This document shows positions 804 through 23,806 of a stretch of DNA of 64,000 nt, piece after piece. A program made the translations under genes and the position numbers. Source of the stretch: an uncultured Actinomycetes bacterium (GTDB lineage Bacteria; Actinomycetota; Coriobacteriia; Anaerosomatales; PHET01); contig CAVOYK010000004.1 of the NCBI GenBank assembly GCA_963700665.1, forward strand, positions 58,793 to 122,792, read 5' to 3'. The notes beneath the pieces are model-generated. The model worked only from the letters and a program-made list of their open reading frames with translations, did no database searches and was not told where the DNA came from. Positions within the stretch are counted from its first letter, which is position 1. Every line of letters begins with the position of its first letter.

Positions 804-812
804 ACGGAATGA

Positions 813-1935
813 GAGGGCCGGCTCTTTCGAGCCGGCCCTCCGTTCCTTCTAGCCTGCTTCGTCGTCGCGGTCGGACCGCGCGAGTCAGGTGGGTCTAGTA
901 GGTGATGCCCACACCAGCGGTGCCGTCGCCAGAGACGTGGCACTTGAGGCACAGGCCGTCTTGCGTGGCGATGACGCCGTTGCCGGTGGTGCCGGTGGCA
1001 ACCTTGCCGGAGACGACGCGAGCGTCGTCAGCGTCGGCGGCGGTGGTCAGCCACACGAGCGCGGAGCCGAGGGTCGGTCTTGGGCACGCTGGCGCCAGCG
1101 GCGTCAACGTAGTTGTGCGGGAACGCCGCGCCACCGATGGCGGCGGACTGGGCGTCGTGGCACGCCTTGCAGGAGTTGGCGTCGTTGAACGCGACGGTCG
1201 ACTCGGCGCCAGGAGCGTCCGCCGCCGGTGTAGTACGCGTCGAACTCGCCGTTCTGGTTCCAGCTCGTCGGTCGCCGTGGCGGTCACGCGGTGACCGGTG
1301 ACTGGTCGACGTGGTGCCCAGACCGGTGATGGTCGGGGTCGCACCGAAGGTGTTGACCGCGAAGACGACCGGGTTCGAGGCGTTGTCGTGGCAGTTGGCG
1401 CACAGGTAGCCGGTACCCAGCGAGAGGCCGGTGCCGACGAGAGCCGGGTCGCTCAGGTCGAACATGTCGGCGGTCAGGCCGTTGTAGTTCGCATCGCCAG
1501 GAGCGGCGGCGAGGTCGGTGTTGATCGCATCGTCGATCTCGCGATGAACAGCTTGGACTTGAACAGCGGGAACTCGGATGCACCGGCGCCGTGCGGCGAC
1601 GGGGTGTGGCAGCGCTGGCAACGACCGTGCGGCGAGAGGCTCGATGCCGACTCGGTGTTGATGTTGACGTCGGTGAAGGTCGCCGACTCGCCGTGGCAGA
1701 AGATGCAGCGAACCGGTGGCGAGCGCGTCACCGGTACAGACCGGCGTTGCCGGTCCAGGCGGTCAGAACCTGGCCGCCGGCCTGCGCGCGGTGGACCGCA
1801 TGGCAAACAGCGCACTTGTTGGTAGTCGTGGCGTAGTTGCCGTGCGGGCTCGGGGCGCCGGCGTTGCCGCCGAGGTTCGAGTCCCACTGGAGGTAGCCGG
1901 GGTAGTTGGCGTTGTACGGGCTCAGCGTACCGCTC
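813..1935. repeat. segmental duplication R1, copy a (partner 6299..7415)
   Basis: Long runs of identical nucleotides with scattered 1-nt indels. Example: GTGCGGCGACGGGGTGTGGCAGCGCTGGCAACGACCGTGCGGCGAGAGGCTCGATGCCGACTCGGTGTTGATGTTGACGTCGGTGAAGG is present in both. Confidence 0.8.
815..838. terminator. GC-rich perfect hairpin, terminator-like
   Basis: GGGCCGGCTC-TTTC-GAGCCGGCCC (10-bp stem, 4-nt loop), between the cytochrome stop (895) and the next minus-strand start (803). An identical copy lies at 6301..6324. No clean U-tract. Confidence 0.45.
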
Positions 1936-2066
1936 CAGATGGGGCCGTACGCGAACGCCGTCGCGGCGAACGCGAAGACGAGAACTGCAGCAAGAGCTGC
2001 AACAAACAGGGTCTTCTTCATTGAATGATCTCCTTGTATCAGTCGATTGGTATTCATCTCTTTCAT
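895..2066 (-). CDS. secreted hexahaem c-type cytochrome, type A (frameshifted as assembled)
   Basis: Joined ORFs 1728..2120, 1474..1887, 1028..1621 and 895..1344. Signal peptide MKKTLFVAALAAVLVFAFAATAFA. Six motifs: CAVCH, CIFCH, CQRCH, CANCH, CKACH, CLKCH. Ends CLKCHVSGDGTAGVGITY*. Two in-frame starts have an SD: 2066 (GGAAAGGAGGTG-N5-ATG) or 2021 (AAGGAGA-N7-ATG). At least 3 frame changes. Confidence 0.8.
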
Positions 2067-2123
2067 TTGCGCACCTCCTTTCCGAGACTGAATTCTATGA
2101 GGAGCAAGCGTGTGCTCCAATCC

Positions 2124-3498
2124 TCACAATGCACACAATACGCTCATCAACGTTAATGTGCAATCAAATTCTGCGCCAATCGGCCAGGGCGAGTACCTAC
2201 TCGCGGCCTCATCGGGCGTGAGTTCAGTGTCGGGCTGAACGGAACTGGATGCGACTGCCGAGGCCGCCTGTCTCCTTCGCCGAATACGCTGAACGATGAA
2301 CAGCACGATCAGGATGAGCAGAAGCGCCAATGGTGCGAGACAGGCGCGCAGCGGGCCGGTCAACGAGCGCCGAATCGCCGACGCGGCACTCGGGGCTGCG
2401 GAACCGGGAATCCGAACGATCTGAACGCGGCTGTTTCCGGCATCGGCGACAGCGAACCAGTCCCGCTGCGCGTCGTAGGCGATACTGGATGGATAGACGA
2501 ACTGACCGTCAAGCGCACCGTACTCCCCGTACTTCTCGATGAACGCGCCATCCTCGGCGTTGAAGACCGAGATGGAGAAGTCGAGTGCGTCCACGACCAC
2601 GAGTCTCCCGTTCCCGTCGACCGTGATGTCGGAAGGCAACTGGAGGCGGGCGGGCGCCGTCGTATCGGCGGAAGCGGCCATCGCGGCTCCGCCGGTGACG
2701 TCGCGCTGGTTGGCCGGGGACCCTGTGTCCACGATCCAGATTCTGTCGCCGTCGGGGCTGTACGCGCTGAGACGGTTGTTGTAGGTATCCACCACGTAGA
2801 TCTTGCCGTCGGACCCAAACGCGACGCCATTCACCGTGTCAAACTGGTCGTCGGCCTGGCCCCTGTTGCCCACGAGGCGGACAGGCTCGCCGTTCTCCGC
2901 GTTGATGATGGCGAATCCCGCTGACGACCCAATGGCCAGCCTGTCGTCGAACGCGTCGATGTCAATCGGGTTGGGGAATGCGAAGGTGCCGAGCTGCCGA
3001 GTCGGGTTCTCGTAGACCCTGACCAGGTCGTTGACGGACTCTCCAATGAAGACTCGCTCCTCGAAGCCTATCGCCACGGGTCCGATGCCATCGAGTATCT
3101 TGTCGGCCGGACCGGGTCCAACGGTGCCCACCAATGAGCCCTCAGGATTGAAGCCCATTGCTCCCATCTCGCGATGACGGGTGTCCGTGACCCAGATGGT
3201 CCCTCCGGCCCCTATGAACAGCTCTTGCGGTATGACGAACTGCGACTGCGGCGTGTCCCCCCAGCCGTAGATGGATCTCACCCACTCGATCCCCCCCGTC
3301 TCAGACTGGGGTGCGACACCTTCGCTCGGCGAGATGAGGTTGAGGAGTAGCGCCGTGATCCCGATGAGCGCCAGCACGAGTACGATGACGATGGCCACGA
3401 GGAGCCTGCGGCCGCGGCGCGAGACCCGGCGCGGGGGGCCTTCCTGGCCCGCCGGACGTAGGCGTGCTCTCTGGCGCCGCGTCGATAGTGTCTGTCAT
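2124..3498 (-). CDS. NHL-repeat beta-propeller protein with N- and C-terminal TM anchors (copy 1; one frameshift near the 5' end)
   Basis: ORF 2124..3398 plus fragment 3301..3498 (MTDTIDAAP...). N-terminal TM VAIVIVLVLALIGITALLLNLI. NHL-type blades: GKIYVVDTYNNRLSAYSPDG, GRLVVVDALDFSISVFN, DWFAVADAGNSRVQIVRI. C-terminal TM LAPLALLLILIVLFIV. Co-linear paralogue of 19662..20951. Confidence 0.8.
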
Positions 3499-4279: not shown

Positions 4280-4421
4280 TGAAGATCCTCCCTGTGGCGA
4301 ATCGAACTGAGGCTTCGACCGGACTCAACGTGCCGAAGCGGCGCTTCGCATCCTAAGCGTAAACGCGATATCGTTCAATGCTGATATCGTGCCAGCAATG
4401 AAGGCAATGTAAGGATTCTTC

Positions 4422-6251: not shown

Positions 6252-6298
6252 GCGAGTCGACGCCCGGACCGAGACCACACCCGTGTCGACACGACGAG

Positions 6299-7415
6299 GA
6301 GGGCCGGCTCTTTCGAGCCGGCCCTCCGTTCCTTCTAGCCTGCTTCGTCGTCGCGGTCAGACCGCGCGAGTCAGGTGGGTCTAGTAGGTGATGCCCACAC
6401 CAGCGGTGCTCGTCGCCATTGACGTGGCACTTGAGGCACAGGCCGTCTTGCGTGGCGACGGTGTTGTTGCCGGTCGTACCGGTGGCAACCTTGCCGGCGA
6501 CGACGCGAGCGTCGTCAGCGTCGGCGGCGGTGGTCAGCCACACGAGCGCGGAGCCGAGGGTCGTCTTGGGCACGCTGGCGCCAGCGGCGTCAACGTAGTT
6601 GTGCGGGAACGCCGCGCCACCGATGGTGGAGGACTGGGCGTCGTGGCACGCCTTGCAGGAGTTGGCGTCGTTGAACGCGACGGTCGAGTCGCCAGGAGCG
6701 CCGCCGGCCCGAGTAGTACGCGTCGAACTCGCCGTTCTCGTTCCACGTGTCGGTCGCCATGGCGGTCACGCGGTGACCGGTGACAGGCGACGTGGTAGCC
6801 AAGACCGGCGATGGTCGGGGTCGCGCCGAAGGTGTTGACCGCGAAGACGACCGGGTTCGAGGCGTTGTCGTGGCACTCGGTGCACAGGTAGCCGGTGCCC
6901 AGCGAGATGCCGGTGCCGACGAGGGCCGGGTCGCTCAGGTCGAACATGTCGGCGGTCAGGCCGTTGTAGTTCGCATCGCCAGGAGCGGCGGCGAGGTCAG
7001 CGTCGATCGCGGCGTCGATGCCGTTGATGATCAGCTTCGACTTGAGCAGCGGGAACTTGGACGCGCCGGCGCCGTGCGGCGACGGGGTGTGGCAGCGCTG
7101 GCAACGACCGTGCGGCGAGAGGCTCGATGCCGACTCGGTGTTGATGTTGACGTCGGTGAAGGTCGCCGACTCGCCGTGGCAGAAGATGCACGAGCCGGTG
7201 GCCAGCGCGTCACCGGAGAGACCGGCGTTGCCGGTCCAAGCGGTCAGGACCTGGCCGCCGGCCTGCGGCGCGGTGGACCGCATGGCAAACAGCGCACTTG
7301 TTGGTAGTCGTGGCGTAGTTGCCGTGCGGGCTCGGGGCGCCGGCGTTGCCGCCGAAGTTCGAGTCCCAGCAGCAGGTAGCCGGGGTAGTTGGCGTTGTAC
7401 GGGCCGCTCCAGAAC
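6299..7415. repeat. segmental duplication R1, copy b (partner 813..1935)
   Basis: See copy a. Includes the terminator hairpin and the type-A cytochrome module. Confidence 0.8.
6301..6324. terminator. GC-rich perfect hairpin, possible bidirectional terminator
   Basis: Same GGGCCGGCTC-TTTC-GAGCCGGCCC hairpin as 815..838. Here it lies between convergent genes ending at 6251 (+) and 6381 (-). Confidence 0.5.
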
Positions 7416-8981
7416 GGGCCCGTGCCGTGATTGTTCAGATCGATCGTGTGACACGTGTTGCAGGTCGCGCCCGGGCGGCGTTGGCACGGCACCGTGGCAG
7501 ACGCCACAAGCCAGCCATGAATCCCGACGACGTTGGATCCGTGGCAGTCGTACACGGGGCGACCGGAATATCCGTGTGCGCGGCCTCGTGCGCGCTTCAT
7601 AGCCCGGATGACACGCCCCGCAGATGCTGTCGCCCGTCGCGATGGCGTTGACCACGTCGGGGTCGGTGCTCGTCGTGGCAGCCGGCGCAGTTGTCGTTGT
7701 GCTCGATCACGATGTCGGCGCTGTGGCAGTCAGCGCACAGCGGGTCGGTGAAGCCGGGGTCGTGCACGCGTGTGCGTGCGGCGGGCCGTGGCACGAGGCG
7801 CACGCGGTGTCACCTGCGCCGATGGCCGCCACGACGTCGGATCGGTGCTCGCGTGGCACAGCGAGCACTGGTACTTGAAGTCGGTGCCGAGCGGGTACTG
7901 CCCGTGCTCGGCGGTCAGCTCGGGGTCGTGGCACGGATCGCACCCGGTCGTGGTGCTCAGGTGCAACGTGTCGAGCTCGGCTGTGGTGTGCTGCGGGATC
8001 GCGGGATAGCTCGTGTTGTGGCAGTAGATCGCACGCGGCGCCCACGTGGTCGGAGGCGGGGAAGTCCTCCCGTCCGTCTCGCCGGGGGCATGGCAGCCGC
8101 AGTCGAGCAGTTGACGTGGTGTTGCCGGGCTGCAGGTGGTAGTAGGTCGGCCCGTGACAGTTCGACCATGGAGCAGCTCAGCGCCGGGTCCATCGGGATG
8201 GGGGCGCCACGACGCGCGAAGTTCCAACGGGCGGAAGTTGGTCTGGCGCCCGCCGTCGTGCACGTAGGCCGACGACCGAGTGCGATGCCGGGGCGCAAGT
8301 CGATCGTAGGCGTCCACGCGGATCACCTGGCCCTGCGGCATGCTCGCCGTTGTACGACCTCGACGCCGTCGAGGACGAGCCGCACGTTCACGTTTCCCGG
8401 GCGTGTTGTCGCCGACCGTGACGACCGATCTGGGGACGCGGCACTGCGACCGTGGAACCGACTCGCGGGCACGTACGGTGCTCGACCGTCGGCGGTGCTG
8501 CCACCGTGTAGTTCCACGACGTGTTGTAGACGGTGCCGTTCACGTCGGTGACCTGTGACGGCGATCGTCGTGACCCCGTCGGGCAGGATGCCGTCGGTGG
8601 CACTGCATCCTGACCTGTCGCAGCGTCGGCCGGCCGTGCGAGACGAACGCGGAGTAGTCGGTGCCGTTGATCCACAGCTTGCGGCTCGAGATCGACCAGG
8701 TTGGGGTCGGCGCGCCGGCGTTGGCCTACACACGGATCTGCGTGCTGGCGACGTGTGACGGTCGAGCCGATAGCGGGGTTGTGGTTCGACCAGGTCAGGG
8801 CGTGGGCCGAGCTCGGTGCCGCCATGGCCGCGAGCAGAAGAATCGCGAACGCCGCGAGCAGAAGCAAGACCCCCGCCGAGAATCGGCGACTACCAAGGTG
8901 CTCGACGGCACCCGTGTGCGATCCGAATCTCAAACCTGCCCCCATGCCCAGACGTGCCCCGCGCTCCCGCACGAGGTGCAC
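6381..8981 (-). CDS. large surface multihaem cytochrome, chimeric: signal peptide + Ig-like domains + multihaem module + type-A hexahaem C-terminus (many frameshifts)
   Basis: ORF 8388..8981 gives LLLLAAFAILLLAAMAAPSSAHA, then LTWSNHNPAIGSTV... (Ig-like). ORF 7730..8341 gives IYCH, CDPCH, CSLCH. Fragments 7597..8045 follow. ORF 6534..7655 gives CGACH and CGVCH, then the type-A module CIFCH, CQRCH, CTECH. ORF 5968..6573 gives CLKCH. The last ~370 aa are co-linear and near-identical at nucleotide level with 895..2066. ORF 7244..7600 reads through the junction (CNTCHTIDLNNHGTGPFWSGPYNANYPGYL). Confidence 0.75.
7608..8810. repeat. segmental duplication R2, copy a (partner 16043..17245)
   Basis: The shared N-terminal module of the two large cytochromes. 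Starts ATGACACGCCCCGCAGATGCTGTCGCCCGTCGCGATGGCGTTGAC in both. Identity declines towards the 5' end of the genes. Confidence 0.7.
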
Positions 8982-9009
8982 TGGTACGAACCTACGTGAC
9001 GTTTAGGTT

Positions 9010-9039
9010 CATTTAGCCAGCATAACGCCCGTCTGTCAA
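9010..9039 (-). promoter_or_regulatory. candidate sigma70-type promoter for the large cytochrome gene
   Basis: Minus strand reads TTGACA-N18-TAAATG, about 25 nt upstream of start 8981. Pattern match only. Confidence 0.3.
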
Positions 9040-9075
9040 TCATCCGTTGGTAGGAGAAGCCCTGAATCGCAACGG

Positions 9076-10344
9076 CTAGCGCAGGTCTTCGGGCAGCGCG
9101 ATGTGACCTGCCACCGCAGTCGCCGCGGCCACGGCCGGCGAAGCCAGGTAGACCTCACTCGTGGGATCACCCATGCGGCCGACGAAGTTGCGGTTGGTGG
9201 TCGCGACCGCCCGCTCCCCCGCCGCCAGGATCCCCATGTGGCCGCCCAGGCACGGACCGCAGGTGGGCGTCGACACCGCTGCGTTCGCGTCGAGGAAGAT
9301 GTCGAAGAGCCCCTCGTGCATCGCCTGACGGTAGATCTCCTGCGTGGCCGGGATGATGATGAGGCGGACCTTGTCGTTGACCTTGCGGCCCTTGAGGACG
9401 CTCGCCGCGATCCGCATGTCTTCGATGCGACCGTTGGTGCAGCTGCCGATGACGACCTGGTCGATCCAGATGTCGCGCGCGTCGGCGACCGGACGCGTGT
9501 TGCTCGGCAGGTGCGGGAAGGCGACGGTCGGCACGATCTGGCTCGCGTCGATCTCGTAGACCGCGGCGTACTCTGCGTCCGCATCGCTGAAGTACTCGAC
9601 CGGCTCGCGCTCGAAACGGCCCTCGACGTACGCGCGCGTAGTGTCGTCGACCGCGATGATGCCGCCCTTGCCGCCGGCCTCGATCGCCATGTTGCAGATG
9701 GTCATGCGATCGTCCATGCCCAGCGCTCGATGGTGTCGCCGGTGAACTCCATCGACTGGTACAGCGCGCCGTCGACGCCGATCATCCCGATGATGTGCAG
9801 GATGACGTCCTTGCCGCTCACCCACGGGCGCAAGTCTCGCCGTCACGTTGAACTTGATGACTGCGGGCACCTTGAACCACGCCTCGCCGGTCGCCATGCC
9901 GACCGCGGCGTCGGTCGAGCCGACGCCGGTCGCGAACGCGCCAAGCGCACCGTAGGTGCAGGTGTGGGAGTCGGCGCCGATGATGACGTCGCCCGGACCG
10001 ACGACGCCCTGCTCGGGCAGCAGCGCGTGCTCGACGCCCATGCAGCCGATCTCGTAGTAGTGCGTGATGCCCTGCGCGTGCGCGAAGTCGCGCACCATCT
10101 TGGCCTGCTCGGCGGACTTGATGTCCTTGTTGGGCGTGTAGTGGTCGGGCACGAGCGCGATCTTGGTCGGGTCCCAGACCTTGTCGACGCCGATCTTGCC
10201 GAACTCCTTGATCGCGATCGGGGCGGTGACGTCGTTGGCGAGCACGATGTCGAGACGGCAGTTGATGAGCTGACCGGGCTCGACCTCGTCGAGGCCGGCG
10301 TGGGCAGCCAGTATCTTCTCGGTGATGGTCATGGGGCGGGTCAT
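9076..10344 (-). CDS. leuC: 3-isopropylmalate/homoaconitate dehydratase large subunit, type 2 (two compensating indels mid-gene)
   Basis: 422-aa ORF: [59 protein letters not shown]. About 45 central residues ([17 protein letters not shown]...) are out of frame. No small-subunit gene is adjacent. Confidence 0.85.
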
Positions 10345-10361
10345 GTGTTCCTCCGTGTGTA

Positions 10362-11955
10362 TCAGCAGACGCGCGATGCGCCTAGAGCTCCTCGGTCACG
10401 GTCTTCTGGTCGGCGACGAGCAGGCGGTTGAGCGCGTTGGTGTACGCCTTGGCCGAAGCCACGATGATATCGGAGTGTGCGCCTCGGCCGGTGAAGATCT
10501 CTCCGTCGGCGCTGCGCACGCGGATCGTGACCTCGCCGAGCGCGTCGATACCGCGCGTCACGGCCTGAACGCTGAACTCGATGAGATCGTTCTCGACGTC
10601 GACGATGCGGTTGATCGCCTTGTAGACCGCGTCGACCGGACCGGTGCCGTGGCTCGAGTCGATCAGCTCGTTGCCGTCCGAGTCGACGAAGCTCGACGGT
10701 CGCCGTCGGGATTCCGGGCTCGCCGCAGGTCACCTGCACGCGCTCGAGGTGGTAGACCTCGTTGATCGTGCGCTCGCTCTCCCCCACCAGCGCCTCGAGG
10801 TCCTCGTCGTAGACCTCCTTCTTCTTGTCCGCGAGCAGCAAGAACGCCTCGTGGACGCGCTCGAACTCGTCTTCGGGAATGCGCGTAGCCCAGCTCTTCG
10901 AGGCGGTGGCGCAGCGCGTGGCGCCCGCTGCGCGCCGTGAGCACGATGCTCGAGCCGCCCGCGCCGACGTCGACCGGGTCGATGATCTCGTAGGTGGAGC
11001 GCTCCTTGAGCACGCCGTCTTGGTGGATGCCGCTCGAGTGCGCGAACGCGTTCGCGCCGACGATCGCCTTGTTGGGCTGCACGTTGATGCCGGTGATGCT
11101 CGATACCAGCCGCTCGTGCGGGTGATCTCGCGGGTCTTGATGCCGGTGTCCGCGCCAAAGACGTCCGGGCGCATCTTGAGCGCCATCACGACCTCTTCCA
11201 TCGCCGTGTTGCCCGCGCGCTCGCCGATACCGTTGATGGTGCACTCGATCTGCCGCGCGCCCGCGTAGACGCCCGCCAGCGCGTTCGCCGTGGCCATCCC
11301 GAGGTCGTTGTGGCAGTGCACCGAGACGACCACGTCCTCGATGCCGTTCACGTTCTCCATCAGGCCGCGGATCAGCCCGCCGAAGACCTCGGGATAGGCG
11401 TAGCCGGTCGTATCCGGGATGTTGACGACCGTCGCGCCGGCGGCGATGACCGCCTCGATCATGCGGTAGAGGAACTCCGGCACCGCGCGCCCGGCGTCCT
11501 CGGCGTAGAACTCGACGTCGCCCACGAGGTTCTTGGCGAGCTTGACGGCAGCGACTGCACGCTCGACCGCCTCGTCGCCCGAGATGCGCAGCTTGTCGCG
11601 CAGGTGGCTCTCGGAGACGCCGATGCCCGTGTGGATGCGCGGGCGCTTCGCGGTCGAAAGCGCGTCGGCAGCCACGTCGATGTCCTTGGGGATGGCGCGC
11701 GTGAGGCCGCACACGATCGCCGCGTCGCCCACCTCGGCGCCGATGCGACGCACGCTCTCGAAGTCACCGGGGCTCGAGATGGGAAAGCCCGCCTCGATGA
11801 TGTCGACGCCGAGGCGCACGAGCTGGCGGGCGATCTCGAGCTTCTCCTCGGTGTTCATGCGATGCGCCCGGCGACTGCTCGCCGTCGCGCAGCGTGGTGT
11901 CGAATATGTAGACGCGGTCGTTGACAGGTCGGGCCGAATTGGCTGGTGTGTTCAC
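10362..11955 (-). CDS. leuA: 2-isopropylmalate synthase (several frameshifts)
   Basis: ORF 10362..11858 plus N-terminal fragment 11764..11955 ([18 protein letters not shown]). Also [16 protein letters not shown] and [10 protein letters not shown]. The C-terminal half is repeatedly out of frame. SD AAGGAG before GTG 11955. Confidence 0.85.
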
Positions 11956-12081
11956 CGGAGGCTCCTTGCTCGGTCGCGGGACAGGTGGCGAAGCCGGCTC
12001 GTGTCGTCAGCAGACGTCGGCCGGCCGAGTAAGTCGACCAAGGCGACCAAGCAATCTGTGGGCATCCAGTGACATGCGTGG

Positions 12082-12087
12082 ATTATA
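12082..12087 (-). promoter_or_regulatory. candidate -10 box (TATAAT) upstream of leuA
   Basis: Perfect TATAAT on the minus strand about 125 nt upstream of the leuA start. The -35 is weak. Pattern match only. Confidence 0.3.
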
Positions 12088-12143
12088 GTCGACCGCTCGC
12101 CCGCGTGTAGCACCCGCTTCCGCGAGCCTCGCAAGGGGCAGCG

Positions 12144-13333
12144 TCAGCGGGGGCTCGCCGCAATCGCAGCCGGAGAGTGACAGACGTCCTTGCAGAAGTC
12201 CCGGGTAGCGGGGTAGGCCTTCTGCATGTGACACGCGTTGCAGTGCGCTGAGTTGGCGCTCTTGTGAGTGGAGGCCATGGTCGTCCCGTGGGCCGCGCCT
12301 ATCAACTCCGAATGACATCCACTGCACGGATGTCGCGATTCCGTGTGGCAACGCCGACAGGCCTTTCCGCCGCCGTACCAGATGTCAACGGTCGCGGCTC
12401 TCGCGTGAGCATGCAGCTTGAACTCGGCCGTGTGCGGCATGCGAAGACCGTGGCATGGGTCGCAGTCCCGCTCCTCGTCGTGACAGCCGGAGCACGACAC
12501 CTCTTGGATCTGGGCGTCCTGAAACGACGTCGTGCGGGGCCGCGCGGCGGCAGCGGCTTGCCCCTCATGGCACGTGGCACACTCCGACGACGCTGTGCTG
12601 TCATCGTGACACCGCAAGCACGGCTTCATGCCTGCGTTGTGGACGCTCACAACCCCGCGGCGCATCGTATGGCAATCGATACACGCTGCGGAAGCGGCGA
12701 GCGGCTCAGCGTGAGATACCTTGAGTCCTCTCTCGTCATTGGTCGTGGTGCCCGCCAATGACGCCTCGTGGCATGACGTGCAGGCTCGACGAGTGGTGCC
12801 GGCCGTACTCCGACTCGTTGCCCGCGCCCGCCCATGCCACCGCATAGTGCAGTACGCGGAGTGGAACCCCGGTCACATAGCGGCCGACGACTCCTCCTTC
12901 TTCATGACAGGACACGCAGGCGACCTGCGTGTGTGGGTCCGTGTTCTTGTCGGCAGTAGCGTGTTCTGAGGCGGGCCAGTGGCAGCTCTTGCACAGTCCC
13001 GGGTCCGATGTCGTGAGCCCAGCTACAACCCACACACCGAGAAAGACCGCCCCTATCACGAGGCCCAGAAGCAGTCGAGACTCCCGACTCCTTGGGGTGG
13101 CCGATCGAACTCCATCTCCGGAGTCTCCGCGTCGCCTCGAAGCAGGGGTGTCGGCATCACCTTCTTCGGGGACCGAGATCACCATCATGATGCCGACGAC
13201 CAGGACTATCAGAAGCAGGAGGGCGATTGTCGCGTAGAGCGTGCACGGCCAGCTTCATGTTCGAGGCAGGCGCGATCAGGACTCGAGTGAGTGTGGACAC
13301 AACGACGCGCAGGCGCTCCGACATGTCGCTCAT
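12144..13333 (-). CDS. NapC/NirT-like membrane-anchored multihaem cytochrome c, ~12 haems (frameshifted)
   Basis: Joined ORFs 12736..13188 and 12144..12845. TM LLLGLVIGAVFLGVWVVAGL, then CKSCH ... CVSCH. Further motifs: CTSCH, CIDCH, CLRCH, CATCH, CSGCH, CDPCH, CRRCH, CSGCH, CNACH and CKDVCH (CX3CH). An upstream extension begins at ATG 13331..13333, overlapping the upstream stop (ATGA), and joins after one indel. Start is 13188 or 13333. Confidence 0.75.
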
Positions 13334-14419
13334 GATTTCTCGCCGTCCGACGTTCGCTGCGTGCCGACGGCACCACCTGGGTGCACGTGCTTCTCATGGC
13401 AGCCGGTGCAGTCCGAGTTGTCGTGACAGCGTTTGCACAGGCCGGATTGCTCCTTCGAGACAATCGCATGCCTCAAGGTGAATCCGGCAGGGTGTGGCAT
13501 CTGGGTGCCGTGACACGCGCTGCAGAACTGCGTCTTGGTGGCAGGACTCACACTGCGCATCCGCTCGAGCAGCATAGGACGCGTGGACGCTCACGAACTC
13601 TGGCTCATGCGGTATGCCGGCCCCGTGACACTCGGCGCAATCACTTGATTCGTGACACACAGTGCACGTGGAGACATCTCCCATCCCGTGCGTTGTCTGC
13701 CAGTTGACGCCGTGAGTCACACCAAAGGATGCGACACTCACCCGGCTGGCGGCCTGACGGCCCTGATGACACAGATCGCACGCCGTGTTGTCCGACGCCA
13801 TGTGGCATACGAGACACGCCTCCATGTCGTAGGACCGAATCCACTGGGTCGCACTACCGTGAGCTGTCGCGGAGTGACAGTCGGTGCACGACGCGCCCGC
13901 GGCACAAGAGGCGTGGTTCATTCTGATGCCGTTGGAGACGACCACGTCTTGGAGAGCTGTCTCATGGCATGCGGCGCATCGGTCGTCCGGTACTGCTGCC
14001 GCGTCGCGGTTTGCGACGCGGCCGACCTCGAAGTAGGCGTGAAGCGGACGCCGCAGCGCGAGAGCGGCCTCTCCTATCGCGCCTGAGGGAACGTGGCATC
14101 GTCGACACTCCACGCCCGCATGGGGAGACGCTTGCGTCTGCGCTCGGAAGGCGCCGCGATCGTGGCAGGAGGCGCAGGGCTTCGGGCCGATCACCCCGAC
14201 AACGCGCAACACGAGCAGACCCACAACCGCCAGCCCGATTGCCGCCGATACGATCCTGCGTCGGCGACTCGCGGCCACAGCATTCCGCGGGGTGCTGCGA
14301 CCTTGCTCGGAATCTCCGGATTCCACTGAATCAGTTTCGACCATGCCACCCTCTTTGCCGACTCTAGAGACAGTTCGCGTCAGAGGTCCCAGAACCTTCC
14401 GTCGACGCGATAGTGACAC
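13330..14419 (-). CDS. NapC/NirT-like membrane-anchored multihaem cytochrome c, 12 CxxCH (one frameshift)
   Basis: ORFs 13394..14419 and 13330..13575. TM IVSAAIGLAVVGLLVLRVVGVI. Motifs: CASCH, CRRCH, CAACH, CTDCH, CLVCH, CDLCH, CTVCH, CAECH, CESCH, CSACH, CKRCH, CTGCH. Start is 14419 or the internal M at 14344. Confidence 0.75.
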
Positions 14420-14420
14420 G

Positions 14421-15765
14421 CTGGGAGCCGGCTCCCCCCGAAGCCGGCTCCCCTGATCACGAGGTCGAAGTGACCTTCGTCATCGCGAAGTACTAGTGCG
14501 TGAGCCCGATACCGTTGCCCGCACCGTCGCGGTGGCACTTCAGACACTGGCCGTCGTAGGCCTTCTGGTTGGTGCCGGCGGTGTAGGTCAGCGGAGCGCC
14601 GACGCTCGCACCGTAGCCCGACCAGATGCGCGAGCGCGACTCCGGTGGCCGAGGTGGAGCCGTCGAGCGTCAGGTTGGTGGCACCGGTCGGCGTCTGGCC
14701 GTGCGGGAACGTGAAGTTGCCCGCGACGGTGTTGGCCGAGTCGGTCTGGTCGTGGCAGCTCGTGCAGCCGGCGATCGGCGCATAGGAGGCCGCGCCCGGA
14801 ACCGCTGCGAAGGTACCGGCGACGTGACCGGTCTTCGAGTCGCGGTTGTCGTTGCCGCCGTAGCCGAGAGCCTCAGCACCGGTGTTGTCGGTGCGGTAGG
14901 CATTGCCCGACGTGATGCCGGTAGCGTGGTTGCGGTCTTCCTTGATGCCCTTGTCGACGATCGCGTAGGCAGCCTCAGCGTGGCACTCGTCCTCGCCGGT
15001 CGACGGGTTGGAGGGACGACCGCAGGTCAGACCCGCGACAAGCGCGTGGGTCTCGTTGGCGTCCGGAGCCGCGCCGTTGATGGTGATGTCGCCGGCGGCC
15101 GTGGTGGCCATGATCGAGCTGTTCGCGGAGACGAAGCGCTCCACGGCAGCGTCGGTGGCGCCCAGGTCGTCCCAGACGGCGTCGAGGCCGCCGTAGGTGC
15201 CGTCACCCTCGAGGTCGTCGTTGGCAGGATCGTTGAACAGCAGCTTGGAGGCGAAGATCTTGTACTTCGAGCTGTTCGCGCCGTGCGGGTTGGTAGCGTG
15301 GCAACGGCGGGTGAAGCAGCCGTAGCGGTGCCCCAGCTCGTAGCTCGGCTCCGGCGTGTCGCCGGTACCGTCCCAGTAGCCGTCCGCGATGAGGTCAAGA
15401 GCGCTGTCGTTGTGGGGGCCGCCACCGTTGGCGGCGCCGCCGGCGGCGGTCTTGTTGGTGATGGCCGCTACCCGCTGTGCGTCAGTCGCGGCAAGCCATG
15501 CGGCACTGCCGACCGGGTAGAGCGGGTTGGCCGGATCGACCTCTGGCACCCACTCGGTGTCATAGGGCGTCCACGTGACGATCTTGGCCGTGATGGCGGT
15601 GCCACCGGTGTGGCAGCCCGCGCACGTGGCGTCGGAGGTCGGGAGCAGCTTGACGCCGTCCCCTGCCGCACGGTGGACCGAGTGGCACATCCCGCACTTG
15701 GCGGTCGTGGCCAGGTAGTTGGCGTGTGCTCCCGGATTGGTGGGGTTGTCGCCGATCGACCCGAG
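14421..15765. repeat. segmental duplication R3, copy a (partner 17446..18782)
   Basis: Almost identical over ~1.3 kb apart from single-base indels. Covers the hairpin plus the type-B cytochrome module. Confidence 0.85.
14423..14452. terminator. GC-rich hairpin downstream of the large cytochrome gene
   Basis: GGGAGCCGGC-(10 nt)-GCCGGCTCCC. Repeated at 17448..17477. No U-tract. Confidence 0.4.
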
Positions 15766-17392
15766 CGCAGGGCCGCTGTCTCTCGGACCGGGAGTCGTAG
15801 TCCATTTGTAGTAGTCCCGTCTGTATCTGAAGAAGCCGGGAGGGTGAATTCCAGGATCGTGACACGAGCCGCATTTCAGGTTGCCCCCTGCAATGGCGGC
15901 GATCACGCGACCGTCAGTGCTCCGATGGCACGCGACGCAGTCGTCCCCGTGCTCTGCCGACACGTTTGGAGTCGTGGCATTCGCCACAGCCGCCACCTGA
16001 GGGCAATCCGCCATCATGAACAGCCGCGTGGCCCGCGCCCTCATGACACGCCCCGCAGATGCTGTCGCCCGTCGCGATGGCGTTGACGACGTTGGGGTCG
16101 GTGCTCGTGTGGCAACCGGCGCAGTCGTCGTTGTGCTCGACCACGATGTCGGCGCTGTGGCAGTCAGCGCACAGCGGGTCGGTGAAGCCGGGGTCGTGCA
16201 CGCGTGGCGTGCAGGCGGGCCGTGGCACGCCGGCGCAGGCGGTGTCACCTGCAGCCGATGGCCGCCACGACGTCGGATCGGTGCTCGCGTGGCACAGCGA
16301 GCACTGGTACTTGAAGTCGGTGCCGAGCGGGTACTGCCCGTGCTCGGCGGTCAGCCCGGGGTCGTGGCACGGATTGCACCCGGTCGTGGTGCTCAGGTGC
16401 AACGTGTCGAGCTCGGCTGTGGTGTGCTGCGGGATCGGCGGGTAGCTCGGGTTGTGGCAGTAGTCGCACGCGGCGCCCACGTGGTCGGAGCCGGGGAAGT
16501 CCGTCCCGTCGTATCTCGCCGGGCGCATGGCAGCCGCTCGTCGAGCAGTTGATGTGGTGTTGCCGGGCTGCAGGTGGTAGTCGGTCGGCCCGTGACAGTT
16601 GGACATGCGAGCAGCTCAGTGCCGGGTCCATCGGAGGTGGCGCGCACGACGGCGAAGTTCCAGCTGCGCGACACGTGGTCTGCCCGATCCCGTCGGTGCA
16701 CGTAGGCCATGACCGAGTGCGTGCCCGGGCTGCGAAGATCGAACGTAGGCGTCCACCGGAACTGCCCCTGCGGGCGAGCTCGCGTTGTACGACCTGCGAC
16801 GCCGTCGACGACGAGCCGCACGTTCACGTTGCCCGGCGTGTTGTCGCCGACCGTGAGCCCGATCTGCGGACGCGGCATGCGACCGTGGAGCCATTCGCGG
16901 GCACGTACGGTGTGAGCGTCGGTAGGCGGTGCTGCGACCGTGTACGTGCCACGAGTTGTTGTGGACGGTCGCCGCTCACGTCGGTGATCCGTACGGCGAT
17001 CGTCGTCACGCCGTCGGGGAGGATACCGTCGTTGACGATGATGTTGACCGTCTTGCGGATTCGGCTGGCGTGGTGTTGACGATCGGATACTCGGTGCCGT
17101 TGATCCACATGCGGCCGTCGAGCGCACCAGGTCAGGCTCGGCTGCGCCGGCCGTGGCCGTCACGCGGATCTGCGTGCTGGGACTAGTGATGGTCGCGCCC
17201 GGCGAGCGGGTTGTAGTTCGACCAGGTCACGGCGTGGGCGACGGCCGGCAGCGCAACGATCATCGCCGCACAAAGCACCACGAAAGCAGCGAGCAGAGTG
17301 ACGCGGTACTGACGCCGATTCCGGACGACGCGATCGGCATCCCCCCTGACCAGCAGCCTTCTTCCGCCCAAGCCACAGAGCTGAGTTCTCAT
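14493..17392 (-). CDS. large surface multihaem cytochrome, chimeric: signal peptide + Ig-like domains + multihaem module + type-B hexahaem C-terminus (many frameshifts)
   Basis: ORF 17183..17392 gives signal peptide LLAAFVVLCAAMIVALPAVAHA, then VTWSNYNPLAG. ORF 16393..17163 gives Ig-like segments (TVNIIVNDGILPDGVTTIAVRITDVSG in fragment 16824..17108; PGNVNVRLVVDGVA). ORF 15914..16606 gives CDYCH, CNPCH, CSLCH, CADCH, CAGCH, CGACH. ORF 14380..16248 gives CVACH and CGSCH, then reads straight into the type-B module CGMCH, CAGCH, CFTRRCH, CTSCH. The true stop is probably TAG at 14493 (tail CLKCHRDGAGNGIGLTH*, by analogy with 17517). Confidence 0.75.
16043..17245. repeat. segmental duplication R2, copy b (partner 7608..8810)
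   Basis: See copy a. Confidence 0.7.
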
Positions 17393-17445: not shown

Positions 17446-18782
17446 CTGGGAGCCGGCTCCCCCCGAAGCCGGCTCCCTGATCACGAGGTCGAAGTGACCT
17501 TCGTCATCGCGAAGTACTAGTGCGTGAGCCCGATACCGTTGCCCGCACCGTCGCGGTGGCACTTCAGACACTGGCCGTCGTAGGCCTTCTGGTTGGTGCC
17601 GGCGGTGTAGGTCAGCGGAGCGCCGACGCTCGCACCGTAGCCCGACCAGATGCGCGAGCGCGACTCCGGTGGCCGAGGTGGAGCCGTCGAGCGGTCAGGT
17701 TGGTGGCACCGGTCGGCGGTCTGGCCGTGCGGGAACGTGAAGTTGCCCGCGACGGTGTTGGCCGAGTCGGTCTGGTCGTGGCAGCTCGTGCAGCCGGCGA
17801 TCGGCGCATAGGAGGCCGCGCCCGGAACCGCTGCGAAGGTACCGGCGACGTGACCGGTCTTCGAGTCGCGGTTGTCGTTGCCGCCGTAGCCGAGAGCCTC
17901 AGCACCGGTGTTGTCGGTGCGGTAGGCATTGCCCGACGTGATGCCGGTAGCGTGGTTGCGGTCTTCCTTGATGCCCTTGTCGACGATCGCGTAGGCAGCC
18001 TCAGCGTGGCACTCGTCCTCGCCGGTCGACGGGTTGGAGGGACGACCGCAGGTCAGACCCGCGACAAGCGCGTGGGTCTCGTTGGCGTCCGGAGCCGCGC
18101 CGTTGATGGTGATGTCGCCGGCGGCCGTGGTGGCCATGATCGAGCTGTTCGCGGAGACGAAGCGCTCGACGGCAGCGTCGGTGGCGCCCAGGTCGTCCCA
18201 GACGGCGTCGAGGCCGCCGTAGGTGCCGTCACCCTCGAGGTCGTCGTTGGCAGGACTCGTTGAACAGCAGCTTGGAGGCGAAGATCTTGTACTTCGAGCT
18301 GTTCGCGCCGTGCGGGTTGGTAGCGTGGCAACGGCGGGTGAAGCAGCCGTAGCGGTGCCCCAGCTCGTAGCTCGGCTCCGGCGTGGTGCCGGTACCGTCC
18401 CAGTAGCCGTCCGCGATGAGGTCAAGAGCGCTGTCGTTGTGGGGGCCGCCACCGTTGGCGGCGCCGCCGGCGGCGGTCTTGTTGGTGATGGCCGCTACCC
18501 GCTGTGCGTCAGTCGCGGCAAGCCATGCGGCACCACCGACCGGGTAGAGCGGGTTGGCCGGATCGACCTCTGGCACCCACTCGGTGTCATAGGGCGTCCA
18601 CGTGACGATCTTGGCCGTGATGGCGGTGCCACCGGTGTGGCAGCCCGCGCACGTGGCGTCGGAGGTCGGGAGCAGCTTGACGCCGTCCCCTGCCGCACGG
18701 TGGACCGAGTGGCACATCCCGCACTTGGCGGTCGTGGCCAGGTAGTTGGCGTGTGCTCCCGGATTGGTGGGGTTGTCGCCGA
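17446..18782. repeat. segmental duplication R3, copy b (partner 14421..15765)
   Basis: See copy a. Confidence 0.85.
17448..17477. terminator. GC-rich hairpin (copy of 14423..14452)
   Basis: Same stem sequence, downstream of the cytochrome stop at 17517. Confidence 0.4.
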
Positions 18783-18954
18783 TGCCGGACACACCGTTCG
18801 GAGATGCGGTGCCAGGCGGAATCACCGCTGGCTTGGTCCACTGGTAGTAGCTCGTGGAGTGTGCGAAGAACTTGCCCGTTGTCGCGAAAGCACTCGCTGC
18901 GAAGACAAAGGTCAGCGCGAGTACCAAGACGACAACAAGAACCGTTCGCTTCAT
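17517..18954 (-). CDS. secreted hexahaem c-type cytochrome, type B (frameshifted as assembled)
   Basis: ORFs 18229..19065 and 17517..18452. SD AAGGGGGA before ATG 18954. Signal peptide MKRTVLVVVLVLALTFVFAASAFA. Motifs: CGMCH, CAGCH, CFTRRCH, CTSCH, CLKCH, plus C-x12-CH (CGRPSNPSTGEDECH). Ends CLKCHRDGAGNGIGLTH*. An extra C at ~18256 relative to the paralogue at ~15230 breaks the frame. Confidence 0.8.
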
Positions 18955-19260
18955 GGATCCCCCTTGTAGTCGATGTGCAGTCTGTCCTTGCTTGCTCGTG
19001 CACCCCCTCTCCGCAAGGAGCCTGAGGCCTTTGCGCCGCGTACCCCCACGCGCCGATCTGGCCATTCACTATTTGCAGCCCGCCTATGCGGCGGACGAGC
19101 CGGCAAACCAGTCAGTGCACTCCGTCTCGCCAAGAACTCCGGAGATTGAGGTGGACTCACCTTTGGCGGGCATAGGCGTTCTCAACGCCTCTTTCGCCCA
19201 GGACAAGGCGAGACCGCCTCAAGGCCCCGGAAGGCTTCGACGGGTCCTACGTGTGGCGCT

Positions 19261-19408
19261 TTGTGGGTTTCTGGGCGCGGCGATCGCGATAGCTGATCTG
19301 CGGTATCTTGCCGCGCGCTGTCGTGAGTCAGTGCTCGTTGTGGGTTTCTGGGCGCGGCGATCGCGATAGCTGATCTGCGGTATCTTGCCGCGCGCTGTCG
19401 TGGGTCAG
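19261..19408. repeat. two-copy tandem direct repeat, ~71-nt unit, 77-nt period
   Basis: TTGTGGGTTTCTGGGCGCGGCGATCGCGATAGCTGATCTGCGGTATCTTGCCGCGCGCTGTCGTG at 19261..19325 and again at 19338..19402, each followed by (A/G)GTCAG. Lies in the 700-nt gap between the NHL gene and cytochrome B. Confidence 0.8.
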
Positions 19409-19661
19409 AACTTCAGGTTTTCAAGCTCACGCCAACCAGTGTTGGCGCCGAGCCATGCGAGCCCACCCTGTCCCCTGTGCTGCCGATCCCCCTGAAGCGT
19501 TTTGAGCACCCACGAAAATGTGCAGTTACGGTGTACTCCTCAATGTTGGCTAATGCAACCCTAATCTTGGAATATTTTCTGAGTCATCCCATAGGAGGAT
19601 GCCACGCGGTGCCTGACCTGTTCGTTGCTCGCCCCGCAAGTGCCCCTCACTTGGATCCTCA

Positions 19662-20951
19662 TCACTGGGGTCCAAGGTCGGTCGCCGTTTCCTCCTTCAG
19701 CCCCACCTCGCCTGTCTCGTCGCTCACCCCGTGCCGACGAGCCCGGCGCGTGAGGACGTAGACGGCTATCGCGATGAGGATGAGCAGAAGCGGGAATGCG
19801 CATGCTCGCACGGGGCCGGATAGCGCGCGGCCCACCGACGCCGCAACGCCCCCTGCGCCGGAACTCGAGCCCGGGATCCGCACGATCTGGACTCTGCGAT
19901 TGAGGGCGTCGGCCACCGTGAACCAGTCCCTGCCCGCGTCATAGCTCACGCTCACCGGATAGAAGAACTGGCCGTCCTCGGCACCGACGTCGCCATACTT
20001 GCCGATGAGCTTGCCCGTCTTGGGATTGAAGACCGCCATGGTGCAGTCGTACATGTCGATGACGACCACCCGGCCGGCGCCATCCACAGCAAGCCCAAGT
20101 GGAAGCTGCAGGGCATCCGCTCCCTTCAACACCGCGTCCTTCGGTGGCTGGGGCACCAACATACCGCTCGATGTCTCTGCGGAGTTCGCGGGGGCGCCTG
20201 TCCTGATGATCCAGCGCCGCTTGCCGTTCGGCTCGTAGGCGCTCAAACGATTGTTGTAGGAGTCGGCGACGTAGATGCTTCCGTCGGGTCCAAACGCGAT
20301 TCCGTGTACGTAGTCGAACTGTTCGGGACCCTTCCCCCGCGTCCCAAAGACTCCTATGGGCTTACCCTGCTTGTCGAGCACTGCGAATCCGGACACCGAG
20401 CCGACCGCGATTCGGTCGTTGCTCACCGCGACCGAGACTGGCTGGGGCACGTTGAACGATCCCGCTTCCTCGCCATTCGTGCCAAGCACGTGAACCCGAT
20501 CGAGCGACGTTTCGCAGATGTAGACGCGTCGGTCCGGTCCCACTGCGATCCGGGAAGGCGCGCTGATCGGCATCGACGGATCGATCGATTCGAGCGACCC
20601 AAGATACCGGCCGTCGGGACCGAAGTGCGTAATGCTCGAGCGGCGCTTCACATCCGTGACCCAGATGGTCCCGGCCTCGCCGGGAACCGCGACTTGGGTC
20701 TGGCCGAAGAGGTCTTCGGCCCTGTCTGAGGTCCCGTAGATCGACCGAATCCACTCCACTCCGGCTGTGTCGACGGGTTCACCGTCGGAACCAGCCGTCC
20801 TCGGCACCCGGAGAGCGCTGTAGAGCAGGTAGGCGGAGAGTCCGAGCAGGAGGATCAGGACAACCAGTACGAGCGCGAGCGCACGTCGTGCTCGACGGTT
20901 CTTCACGGGTGGAGCCGCATCGCCTGTCGGCAGAGCGGTGGTGTCGCTCAT
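19662..20951 (-). CDS. NHL-repeat beta-propeller protein with N- and C-terminal TM anchors (copy 2, intact)
   Basis: 429-aa intact ORF. TM ALALVLVVLILLLGLSAYLLY. Blades: GSIYVADSYNNRLSAYEPNG, GRVVVIDMYDCTMAVFN, DWFTVADALNRRVQIVRIPGS. C-terminal TM AFPLLLILIAIAVYVL. Confidence 0.85.
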   Translation of the reverse strand: MSDTTALPTGDAAPPVKNRRARRALALVLVVLILLLGLSAYLLYSALRVPRTAGSDGEPVDTAGVEWIRSIYGTSDRAEDLFGQTQVAVPGEAGTIWVTDVKRRSSITHFGPDGRYLGSLESIDPSMPISAPSRIAVGPDRRVYICETSLDRVHVLGTNGEEAGSFNVPQPVSVAVSNDRIAVGSVSGFAVLDKQGKPIGVFGTRGKGPEQFDYVHGIAFGPDGSIYVADSYNNRLSAYEPNGKRRWIIRTGAPANSAETSSGMLVPQPPKDAVLKGADALQLPLGLAVDGAGRVVVIDMYDCTMAVFNPKTGKLIGKYGDVGAEDGQFFYPVSVSYDAGRDWFTVADALNRRVQIVRIPGSSSGAGGVAASVGRALSGPVRACAFPLLLILIAIAVYVLTRRARRHGVSDETGEVGLKEETATDLGPQ

Positions 20952-21700
20952 TCTGTGACTCCAATCCTCTTCAGTCCCGCCTTCGCTTCCTCGTCATACG
21001 GAACGAACCTCAGCGCCTCACGGAAGTCCCTCTCGGCGCCGACCTTGTCGTTCAGTCGTGCCTTGGCATTGCCTCGATCGATGAGAACGTCGGACGCCGT
21101 CGGATTCTCGTCTATGTAGATGTCGAACGCGGCGACCGCTTCCTTCAAGCGGCCTAGTTCGACCAGAGCGTATGCCTTGACCAGAGCGGCGTTGTCGTAG
21201 TCTGCGCCGTAGCTCAAGCTATCGGGTGGGGCCGAGGCCTTGTAGCCCTTCATGGCCTTGTCTGCGAAAGACACGGCTTCGCCGTAGTCCTTTCGCGCAC
21301 TAAGCAGCCTTGCCTCGGCAAGATCGAGGTCGGAGAGCGGCACGGTGGTATCCACGCTCGCTCGAGCCTGGCTGAGCGCCAGCCGCGCGCCGGACAAGTC
21401 ACCTGTGGCGACAAGGGCCTGGATGTATGGAGCCCAGGTCTCGCCCGTGGCCTGTGCGGCGTTGAGTCGGGCGGAGGCCTCCAGAAGTTCTCGCTCGGCC
21501 ACCGACCGCGGTCCGGTGGGGGCCATCAACCCAGTCGCAAGTACGCCGACAACGGTCGCAAGAAAGAGAATCGTGAGACCGAGCGCTGCGTACAACATGG
21601 CTCGGACAACAGGGTCGGCAAGAAAGGCCCACTTGCGGGGCCGCGACTCCTCGGACTGATCGAGCGGACCGTCGGGAACCTGCGCACTAGCACCACTCAT
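20948..21700 (-). CDS. TM-anchored TPR-repeat protein (copy 2, intact)
   Basis: ORF 20948..21973. Probable start is the ATG at 21700 (MSGASAQ, SD AGGAGGA upstream). TM AMLYAALGLTILFLATVVGVLATGL. Ends DFREALRFVPYDEEAKAGLKRIGVTE*. The stop overlaps the NHL start (ATGA). Confidence 0.75.
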   Translation of the reverse strand: MSGASAQVPDGPLDQSEESRPRKWAFLADPVVRAMLYAALGLTILFLATVVGVLATGLMAPTGPRSVAERELLEASARLNAAQATGETWAPYIQALVATGDLSGARLALSQARASVDTTVPLSDLDLAEARLLSARKDYGEAVSFADKAMKGYKASAPPDSLSYGADYDNAALVKAYALVELGRLKEAVAAFDIYIDENPTASDVLIDRGNAKARLNDKVGAERDFREALRFVPYDEEAKAGLKRIGVTE

Positions 21701-22109
21701 GGCATCCTCCTGCTTGATAGCTCGCTGCCTTGGGTGCCGGCCCAAATCTCGAAGCACTGAATATCGGCGGCTGGAGCCCTCTGCTGAGGTTCGCGACATG
21801 GGGCGCCGAAACCTGCAAGCCGAGCCTCGCAGAAGGCGTCTCCACAAAATCAATACATACTGCTCCGCCACGTTTCGAGTACCGGCGGCCCTGTCCCGCG
21901 GGCGACGAATACTGGACCCAGATCCAGGCGCACTCGGAGGTGGGGCTGTTGCGCGACGTGAAGCAAGCCACAACGAGCGGCAGCCCAGCGCGAGGAGAGA
22001 CGGGCTGCGAAGGCTTCTGACTTCTCGCTGACCAAGAACGCGTCCGGCGGCGGCTCGCCGCCGCTCCCCTCAGTGAGACGCGTAGAGAGGATCGGTGGTC
22101 AATCCCCGA

Positions 22110-23713: not shown

Positions 23714-23806
23714 AGGCAGAGCACCTCGGGTATCAGCCCGATAGTCGTCGCCTTCCCGGAGCTACTGCGAGCGCATCGGGTGGCATTTCGTGCCTCGACA
23801 CCCACT

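Follow-up and report, generated by a model that had tools for sequence, protein, structure and literature searches.

The window analysed here is a stretch of 64,000 nucleotides (C4:58793-122792) from a genome, G000, of 2.45 Mb in 13 contigs, with 65% G+C and an estimated completeness of 77%, whose host is an uncultured Gram-positive, Coriobacteriia-like actinomycete. It carries an island of electron-transfer genes, and at issue are two long genes in it, fusion 1 and fusion 2, each of which joins a shared N-terminal module (N-module) to a hexahaem cytochrome unit of one of two types, A or B, that is also encoded in the island by a stand-alone gene. The two are likely genuine paralogous genes for secreted, modular multihaem c-type cytochromes, of old architecture and kept alike by gene conversion, the breaks in their reading frames being errors of assembly. 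An earlier note on the window had reported them as two giant cytochromes built by domain shuffling; what it observed is real but overstated in places, and its interpretation was partly right.

Two fused genes and their stand-alone counterparts

Every gene of interest is on the minus strand. The four genes, and the parts of the two fused ones, are (window coordinates):

18954..17517, minus strand: stand-alone B hexahaem cytochrome, with its own signal peptide (MKRTVLVVVLVLALTFVFAASAFA), a frame shift at about 18255 and a scrambled stretch at 17640-17720
17392..14493, minus strand: fusion 2, signal peptide, N-module, linker and B-type hexahaem unit, with about 10 frame shifts
16037..17245, minus strand: shared N-module of fusion 2 (copy 2), the second copy of repeat R2
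15757..16036, minus strand: linker of fusion 2, unique, with haem motifs CGECH, CVACH and CGSCH; junction CGSCHDPGIHPPGFFRYRRDYYKWTTTPGP
14493..15756, minus strand: B-type hexahaem unit of fusion 2, with CGMCH, CAGCH, CFTRRCH, CGRPSNPSTGEDECH, CTSCH and CLKCH, ending GIGLTH and a stop codon; 99.4% identical to stand-alone B
8981..6381, minus strand: fusion 1, signal peptide, immunoglobulin-like (Ig-like) segments, c7-type haems and A-type hexahaem unit, with about 18 frame shifts
7602..8810, minus strand: shared N-module of fusion 1 (copy 1), Ig-like segments and seven haem motifs
7409..7601, minus strand: linker of fusion 1, unique, with its own haem motifs CGVCH and CNTCH; junction CNTCH..HGTGPFWSGPYNANYPGYL
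6381..7408, minus strand: A-type hexahaem unit of fusion 1, with CAVCH, CIFCH, CQRCH, CTECH, CKACH and CLKCH, ending GVGITY and a stop codon; 94% identical to stand-alone A
2021..895, minus strand: stand-alone A hexahaem cytochrome, with its own signal peptide (MKKTLFVAALAAVLVFAFAATAFA) and about 8 frame shifts

Three pairs of direct repeats, each with exactly two copies in the whole genome, relate these genes to one another, and the pairwise comparison that the earlier note had asked for confirms all three. R1 (813-1925 vs 6299-7408) matches stand-alone A to the C-terminal part of fusion 1 at 94% identity, with 56 substitutions and 13 indels, 12 of them not multiples of 3; R2 (7602-8810 vs 16037-17245) matches the two N-modules at 87% (92 substitutions, 56 indels); and R3 (14451-15756 vs 17475-18783) matches the C-terminal part of fusion 2 to stand-alone B at 99.4% (5 substitutions, 3 indels). 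Fusion 1 does end in a copy of stand-alone A and fusion 2 in a copy of stand-alone B, and the near-identity claimed for all the shared parts is restricted to R3.

Peptide landmarks common to the two N-modules include LTWSNHNP at 8798 vs VTWSNYNP at 17230, and PGNVNVRLV at 8400 and 16836. The haem stretch said to be shared, and put at about ten haems, consists of seven shared motifs, the further three or so per gene lying in that gene's own linker (about 190-280 nucleotides, one copy apiece). Its first motif (about 8020-8035 in fusion 1) is CDYCH in fusion 2; fusion 1 has AIYCH in its place, which would be either a haem site that has lost its first cysteine, leaving a single thioether, or another sequence error. 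Counted across frames there are about 13 CXXCH motifs per fused gene, plus the CX4CH and CX12CH sites of the B unit, and at about 870-970 amino acids and about 16 haems the products are mid-sized for multihaem cytochromes, not giant.

The reconstructed N-module matches the c7/c3-type family PF14522 with 44.5 bits (gathering cut-off 24.8), the match stopping short of the A or B unit, and database homologues of fusion 2 match the same family. One of these homologues, P0006, matches Big_13 (PF19077) with 28.6 bits (cut-off 27) at the segment aligned to PGNVNVRLVVDGV; a PF19077 scan of the window's own error-laden N-module reconstruction gave no match. Read by eye, the N-termini have a basic region, a hydrophobic region and AHA or AFA.

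At the junctions, stand-alone A reads AFA followed by YGPIWSGTLSPYNANYPGYLQW and fusion 1 reads CNTCHTIDLNNHGTGPFWSGPYNANYPGYL; stand-alone B reads AFA followed by TTGKFFAHSTSYYQWT and fusion 2 reads CGSCHDPGIHPPGFFRYRRDYYKWT. The N-module joins directly onto the first mature residues of the stand-alone protein, in place of the signal peptide. Open frames cross both junctions, as had been noted (7729..7247 and 16350..14383), and a stop codon plus signal peptide, the sign of two separate genes, was looked for at both and found at neither in the assembled sequence. From N- to C-terminus each fused product would comprise a Sec signal peptide, a pair of Ig-like segments, about ten haems of c7/c3 type and a complete mature hexahaem unit, with the N-module replacing the stand-alone protein's signal peptide at the predicted cleavage site.

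A search with reconstructed fusion 2 gave 44 database relatives, among them intact proteins of 819-1124 amino acids from NCBI, JGI and ENA assemblies, 50-72% identical and with the domain order Ig-like (PF19077, PF17957) and c7 (PF14522), then B unit. P0006 (872 amino acids) aligned over 96% of the query, and it and four others (P0004, P0005, P0010 and P0012; the five being 872-922 amino acids) have a signal peptide and Ig-like segments of the 'TWS(N/Q)' kind at the start and a B unit at the end; the short-read contig L018 has an uninterrupted frame of 1140 amino acids with 16 CXXCH motifs. The A type is rare: an exhaustive search with an in-frame 160-amino-acid piece found 42 proteins among 1.84 billion representatives, either stand-alone (360-460 amino acids) or long (810-1382) with the unit at the C-terminus, and six of the long forms have a full-length homologue of this N-module. 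P0051, of 874 amino acids, has a TWSN module and an A unit, with 37% identity over 398 residues, and ends CLKCHVSGDRSAGVGKTY.

G001, a sister species of the same genus, has intact open reading frames (ORFs) of 759, 748 and 588 amino acids that end in A units, the first having a signal peptide, an Ig-like segment and about nine haems before it; G001 also has a stand-alone A and a stand-alone and fused B pair. The junction peptide GATC(N/T)TCH..HG(T/A)GPF(W/F) is common to fusion 1 and the G001 proteins, and the junction CxxCH(D/T)PG(I/L)H..GFF..DYY.WTT.PGP is found in more than ten proteins. With intact proteins of 759-1140 amino acids in the sister species and many independent metagenomes, and with conserved junction motifs, the fusions are very probably real, as the earlier note had supposed, and not mis-joins, and judged by these relatives both architectures are ancient and widespread, with no recent fusion in this genome. 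In the G001 region concerned (C9, 1-60000; L015-L017) there are five A-unit copies, 81-95% identical and with different N-termini; the 748-amino-acid protein has an extra C-terminal Ig-like extension, and a 1.27-kb repeat (19184-20453 vs 23100-24368, 97%) lies upstream of two A-unit copies.

The remaining genes of the island, in order from high to low coordinates, are:

21973..20948, minus strand: TPR gene, first in the order
20951..19662, minus strand: NHL propeller gene, next after the TPR gene, both being upstream of stand-alone B
14419..12144, minus strand: two haem-dense c7/NapC-like cytochrome genes downstream of fusion 2, a position kept in relatives as a 12-haem and 11-haem pair
11858..10362, minus strand: leuA, present once in the genome and serving as a control for errors
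10344..9076, minus strand: leuC, between leuA and fusion 1
between fusion 1 and the second NHL gene, plus strand: membrane gene, the only plus-strand gene in the order
3398..2124, minus strand: second NHL gene, between the membrane gene and stand-alone A
after stand-alone A: a further cytochrome gene, last in the order

The order stand-alone B, fused B, 12-haem, 11-haem is kept in six genomes (G000, G001, L018, L019, L023 and L024), with the TPR and NHL genes ahead of it in the two cases whose upstream stretch was looked at (G000, L021); L020 and L021 have stand-alone B only. An operon core of TPR, NHL propeller, hexahaem B, (fused B), 12-haem and 11-haem genes is conserved across Coriobacteriia-like metagenome-assembled genomes (MAGs).

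Breaks in the reading frames

None of the four hexahaem genes is an intact ORF, and the CXXCH motifs of any one of them are scattered over all three frames, so that the two genes proposed in the earlier note exist as fused architectures with shared landmarks, but not as single frames. The numbers of shifts listed above, and the 2-4 needed for stand-alone B, come from dynamic programming on codon usage, with 84 long ORFs from the genome as training set; tblastn with intact homologues likewise finds both B copies split across frames. The assembly artefact that the earlier note had named as an option does not hold for the joins, but the sequence does carry dense single-nucleotide indels, unremarked there, that break all four genes.

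The breaks are quite probably errors, single-base indels left uncorrected in a metagenome assembly from long reads (Nanopore-type), a judgement that draws on the indel-rich spectrum, the association with sequencing technology, the state of leuA, counts of phase switches and the conservation of residues. The ratio of indels to substitutions is 3:5 in R3 and 13:56 in R1; the pair of B units in the short-read contig L018 shows 38 substitutions, but not one gap, along 756 nucleotides. B units are in a single frame in 3/3 short-read assemblies with a complete unit (L018, L020, L021) and split in 11/11 from G000 and from L019 and L022-L025, which are MAGs with MFD names. L022 and G001:C9 are one contig (71,419 bp), G001 being the Microflora Danica MAG 'MFD04716.bin.1.58', and the MAGs of that project were assembled with Flye from Nanopore reads only and polished once with Medaka (PMC12313526). 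The non-repeated housekeeping gene leuA has 3-4 frame shifts, such that its raw ORF covers 47/131 positions of LeuA_dimer; once corrected, HMGL-like, HCS_D2 (82/82) and LeuA_dimer (131/131, E 3e-38) are all complete, and tblastn gave no other leuA match in the 77%-complete assembly. Switches of phase in third-position G+C (GC3), a crude proxy calibrated on few loci, occur at 20-41 per 10 kb in MFD loci, at 8-19 in loci from short reads, and at a median of 21 in G000. Apart from the shifts, the amino-acid sequence of the broken genes is fully conserved.

Several things weigh against this account. The breaks are uneven, with rpoB having an open frame of 1191 amino acids and the NHL gene at 19662..20951 and several long genes being unbroken, and the two 10-kb bins over the island's lower 11 kb or so (window 1-11207) are among the most broken of the genome, at 39-41 switches vs the median of 21. 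One +1 insertion is present in both B copies (14600-14720 and 17624-17746), just before ...RSRIWSGYG, and could be either a systematic basecalling error in an identical context or a real mutation spread by gene conversion; in stand-alone B two more single-C insertions (after 'GAC' and before 'GC') restore the frame after about 25 scrambled residues. That G000 is itself a Nanopore MAG is surmised from its relatives and contiguity. On the functional side, extracellular electron transfer is probably what these proteins serve, a role read from gene context only, and AlphaFold2 models of the units are of low confidence, with predicted local distance difference test (pLDDT) scores of 43.8 for B (24-row alignment) and 38.9 for A (17-row alignment).

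The strongest competing explanation is that the island is decaying, the shifts being real and the four genes, leuA and leuC pseudogenes in a lineage that gave up extracellular electron transfer. The concentration of breaks in the island, its two lower bins ranking near the genome's top, beside an intact rpoB, NHL gene and several long genes, fits such decay, as do the insertion common to both B copies and the two that restore the frame in the stand-alone one. However, residues are fully conserved outside the shifts, corrected leuA yields complete domains in what is the sole leuA match of the assembly, and the indel:substitution ratio is far above that of short-read paralogues. The same genes, moreover, are broken in every Nanopore MAG relative and in no short-read one, a pattern that follows technology and not lineage, and decay is accordingly judged unlikely. 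Failed polishing confined to the repeats was rejected as sole cause of the shifts, in that leuA, which has a single copy, also has shifts, as does a leuC-like gene at about 36.2-37.5 kb. No convincing sequence context common to the indels was found.

The island leuC has two compensating shifts, and the raw leuA ORF of 498 amino acids stays open only by chance of high G+C; the second, leuC-like gene (36222-37452), 45% identical to the island leuC, changes frame near 36965. Some database 'proteins' of the cytochrome family (P0023, P0028 and P0045) are out-of-frame translations of error-ridden contigs, P0045 being a 249-amino-acid fragment called from the window itself. Cytochrome genes of this assembly are not annotatable from ORFs without error correction, and for the genome at large ORF-based annotation will be unreliable.

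Likeness of the copies

Paralogous units are 94-99.6% identical within a genome, and units are 56-91% identical between sister species. Where this pattern sets in is shown by a four-way nucleotide alignment, in which G000 and G001 are each represented by their stand-alone and their fused B gene. Over the first 100 or so columns, in which a signal peptide is set against a linker, orthologues agree at 0.64-0.83 and paralogues at 0.29-0.42; over the next 100 columns orthologues are ahead by a slight margin only; and from the start of the B unit onward it is the paralogues that are 96-100% identical, the orthologues being at 56-91%. The switch to near-identity of paralogues comes at about the same place in both genomes. 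A tree built from 14 B units pairs the two copies within each of G000, G001, L018 and L024 with support of 1.0, and L019 has two diverged types that group with different lineages. The A units of G001 follow suit, five of them within 60 kb being 81-95% identical.

Segment identities and unit tree, together with the conserved synteny and junctions, argue for concerted evolution of an old gene pair; the high identity of fused and stand-alone units, and of the two N-modules, indicates gene conversion within the genome. In a tree of N-modules, those joined to A units are interleaved with those joined to B-like units, and the modules must therefore have been exchanged or homogenised between the A and B types more than once, the 87%-identical N-modules of G000 being a local instance. 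To that extent the domain shuffling of the earlier note is borne out. Among the three causes of near-identity that it had left side by side (recent duplication, conversion or artefact), gene conversion fits best, and a recent fusion does not fit, given how widespread the architectures are.

Very recent duplication and fusion, occurring independently in each lineage and without gene conversion, would equally predict that paralogues cluster by genome, and the mere 5 substitutions between the R3 copies suit it. Against it, the stand-alone/fused pair stands in the same order in the six genomes named, orthologues are closer upstream of the unit with a switch point that is alike in two species, and in L019 both diverged unit types persist. 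It would also be unparsimonious for one and the same junction to arise anew in genome after genome, and this alternative is quite unlikely. That the long genes are assembly chimeras, in which an N-module gene was joined to an A or B gene at repeats or a collapsed repeat was duplicated, is a suggestion prompted by three repeat pairs of more than 1.1 kb within 18 kb and an evidently low base accuracy, but it is extremely unlikely, since the same architectures and junction peptides occur as intact ORFs in the sister species and many independent assemblies, short-read ones included, both junctions are in unique single-copy linkers (7409-7601 and 15757-16036), the repeat copies differ by 5-92 substitutions and are thus distinct loci, and the gene order agrees with that of G001 and L018. 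That conversion between the free and the fused copy is seen in several lineages hints at a need for the two forms to match.

The hexahaem units and their likely function

Profiles of the A and B units align with each other across all six haem sites (hhalign probability 100%, E 4e-46, 31% identity), and by this alignment A and B are two subfamilies of one uncharacterised hexahaem superfamily. The B unit has four CXXCH sites and invariant CX4CH and CX12CH sites; in the family alignments the haem motifs are invariant, and each type has six further histidines, outside the motifs, that are invariant or nearly so and would allow bis-histidine ligation of all six haems. Haem density is low, with six in about 350-455 residues. 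Sequence and profile searches of the units against PDB, Pfam and NCBIfam gave nothing past local haem-motif matches, the PDB matches of the family profile (1z1n at E 2.9e-13, 3ov0 at E 1.2e-8, MccA and others) being confined to the c7-type stretch of the N-module, and literature searches found no description of the family. What is defined is an uncharacterised and rare superfamily with A and B types, free or welded to haem-wire and Ig-like modules, whose hosts are poorly known Gram-positive bacteria of subsurface and soil.

In these multihaem cytochromes, predicted to be secreted, the c7-type and hexahaem parts are in series, and genes for membrane-type multihaem cytochromes (NapC/c7), a TPR protein and an NHL propeller are their cluster neighbours. 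The haems, about 16 in an unbroken chain, would take respiratory electrons from NapC-like cytochromes that are encoded in this cluster and anchored in the membrane, and deliver them, through the cell wall or past it, to acceptors outside the cell, for example Fe(III). Fe(III) reduction is known from cultured Anaerosomatales, an order of the Coriobacteriia, which have about 17 multihaem cytochromes (PMC9686372), and a conduit at the cell wall or outside it in a monoderm actinomycete is consistent with these isolates. The Thermincola OcwA/CwcA pathway and the Anaerosomatales isolates resemble the present case in having a monoderm host, membrane quinol-oxidising and secreted multihaem proteins, and presumed Fe(III) reduction, though for the surface cytochromes themselves the likeness is so far one of host and cluster makeup; the A and B units are not described in the available part of PMC9686372. 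The match between free and fused forms is a testable lead on how monoderm bacteria wire electrons through a thick wall.

A bolder and rather unlikely proposal, by analogy with cytochrome nanowires, has stand-alone A and B as subunits that polymerise into filaments in a Gram-positive lineage and the fused proteins as dedicated base or tip subunits, with conversion keeping the unit matched for co-assembly. A fused protein would be one copy of the filament subunit with a 10-haem c7-type lead and Ig-like domains, and would plug the filament into a cell-wall electron path, a mineral or a partner cell. The minimal OmcE cluster has two multihaem cytochromes, beta-propeller lipoproteins, the subunit and a beta-barrel, and an anchor or tip subunit has not been found so far (PMC13712944); if the proposal were true, the fused protein would supply the one lacking in the OmcE literature (PMC13712944). 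Like OmcS, OmcE and OmcZ, the units are secreted proteins by prediction, with few haems per residue and six conserved non-motif histidines for six haems, and, as in the OmcE cluster, a propeller gene (NHL) flanks the unit genes, with TPR, 12-haem and 11-haem genes, here and in L018, L020, L021 and L022. Unlike them, the A and B units have no sequence similarity to any solved nanowire subunit (PDB, E up to 10, with a single sequence and with profiles of both types), and the B unit has CX4CH and CX12CH at two of its haem sites. Any filament of theirs is putative, and no beta-barrel gene is present here, as expected for a monoderm.

Multihaem c-type cytochromes evolve by gain and loss of haem modules. 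As in Geobacter GSU1996 (PDB 3ov0) and the 16-haem HmcA-type protein (1z1n), haem modules are strung together here, and the haem stretch of the N-module matches c7/c3-type models. The differences from both are that the C-terminal A or B unit matches no solved structure or curated family, and that the module is the whole of a mature protein which also exists on its own, its near-identity to the free copy being maintained by what appears to be gene conversion.

As for cytochrome maturation, ResB (PF05140) was not found in the 77%-complete genome, which means either a maturation system other than ResBC or a gene in the missing 23%. PF01578 (cytochrome c assembly) has four matches in the genome, on C5 and C8.

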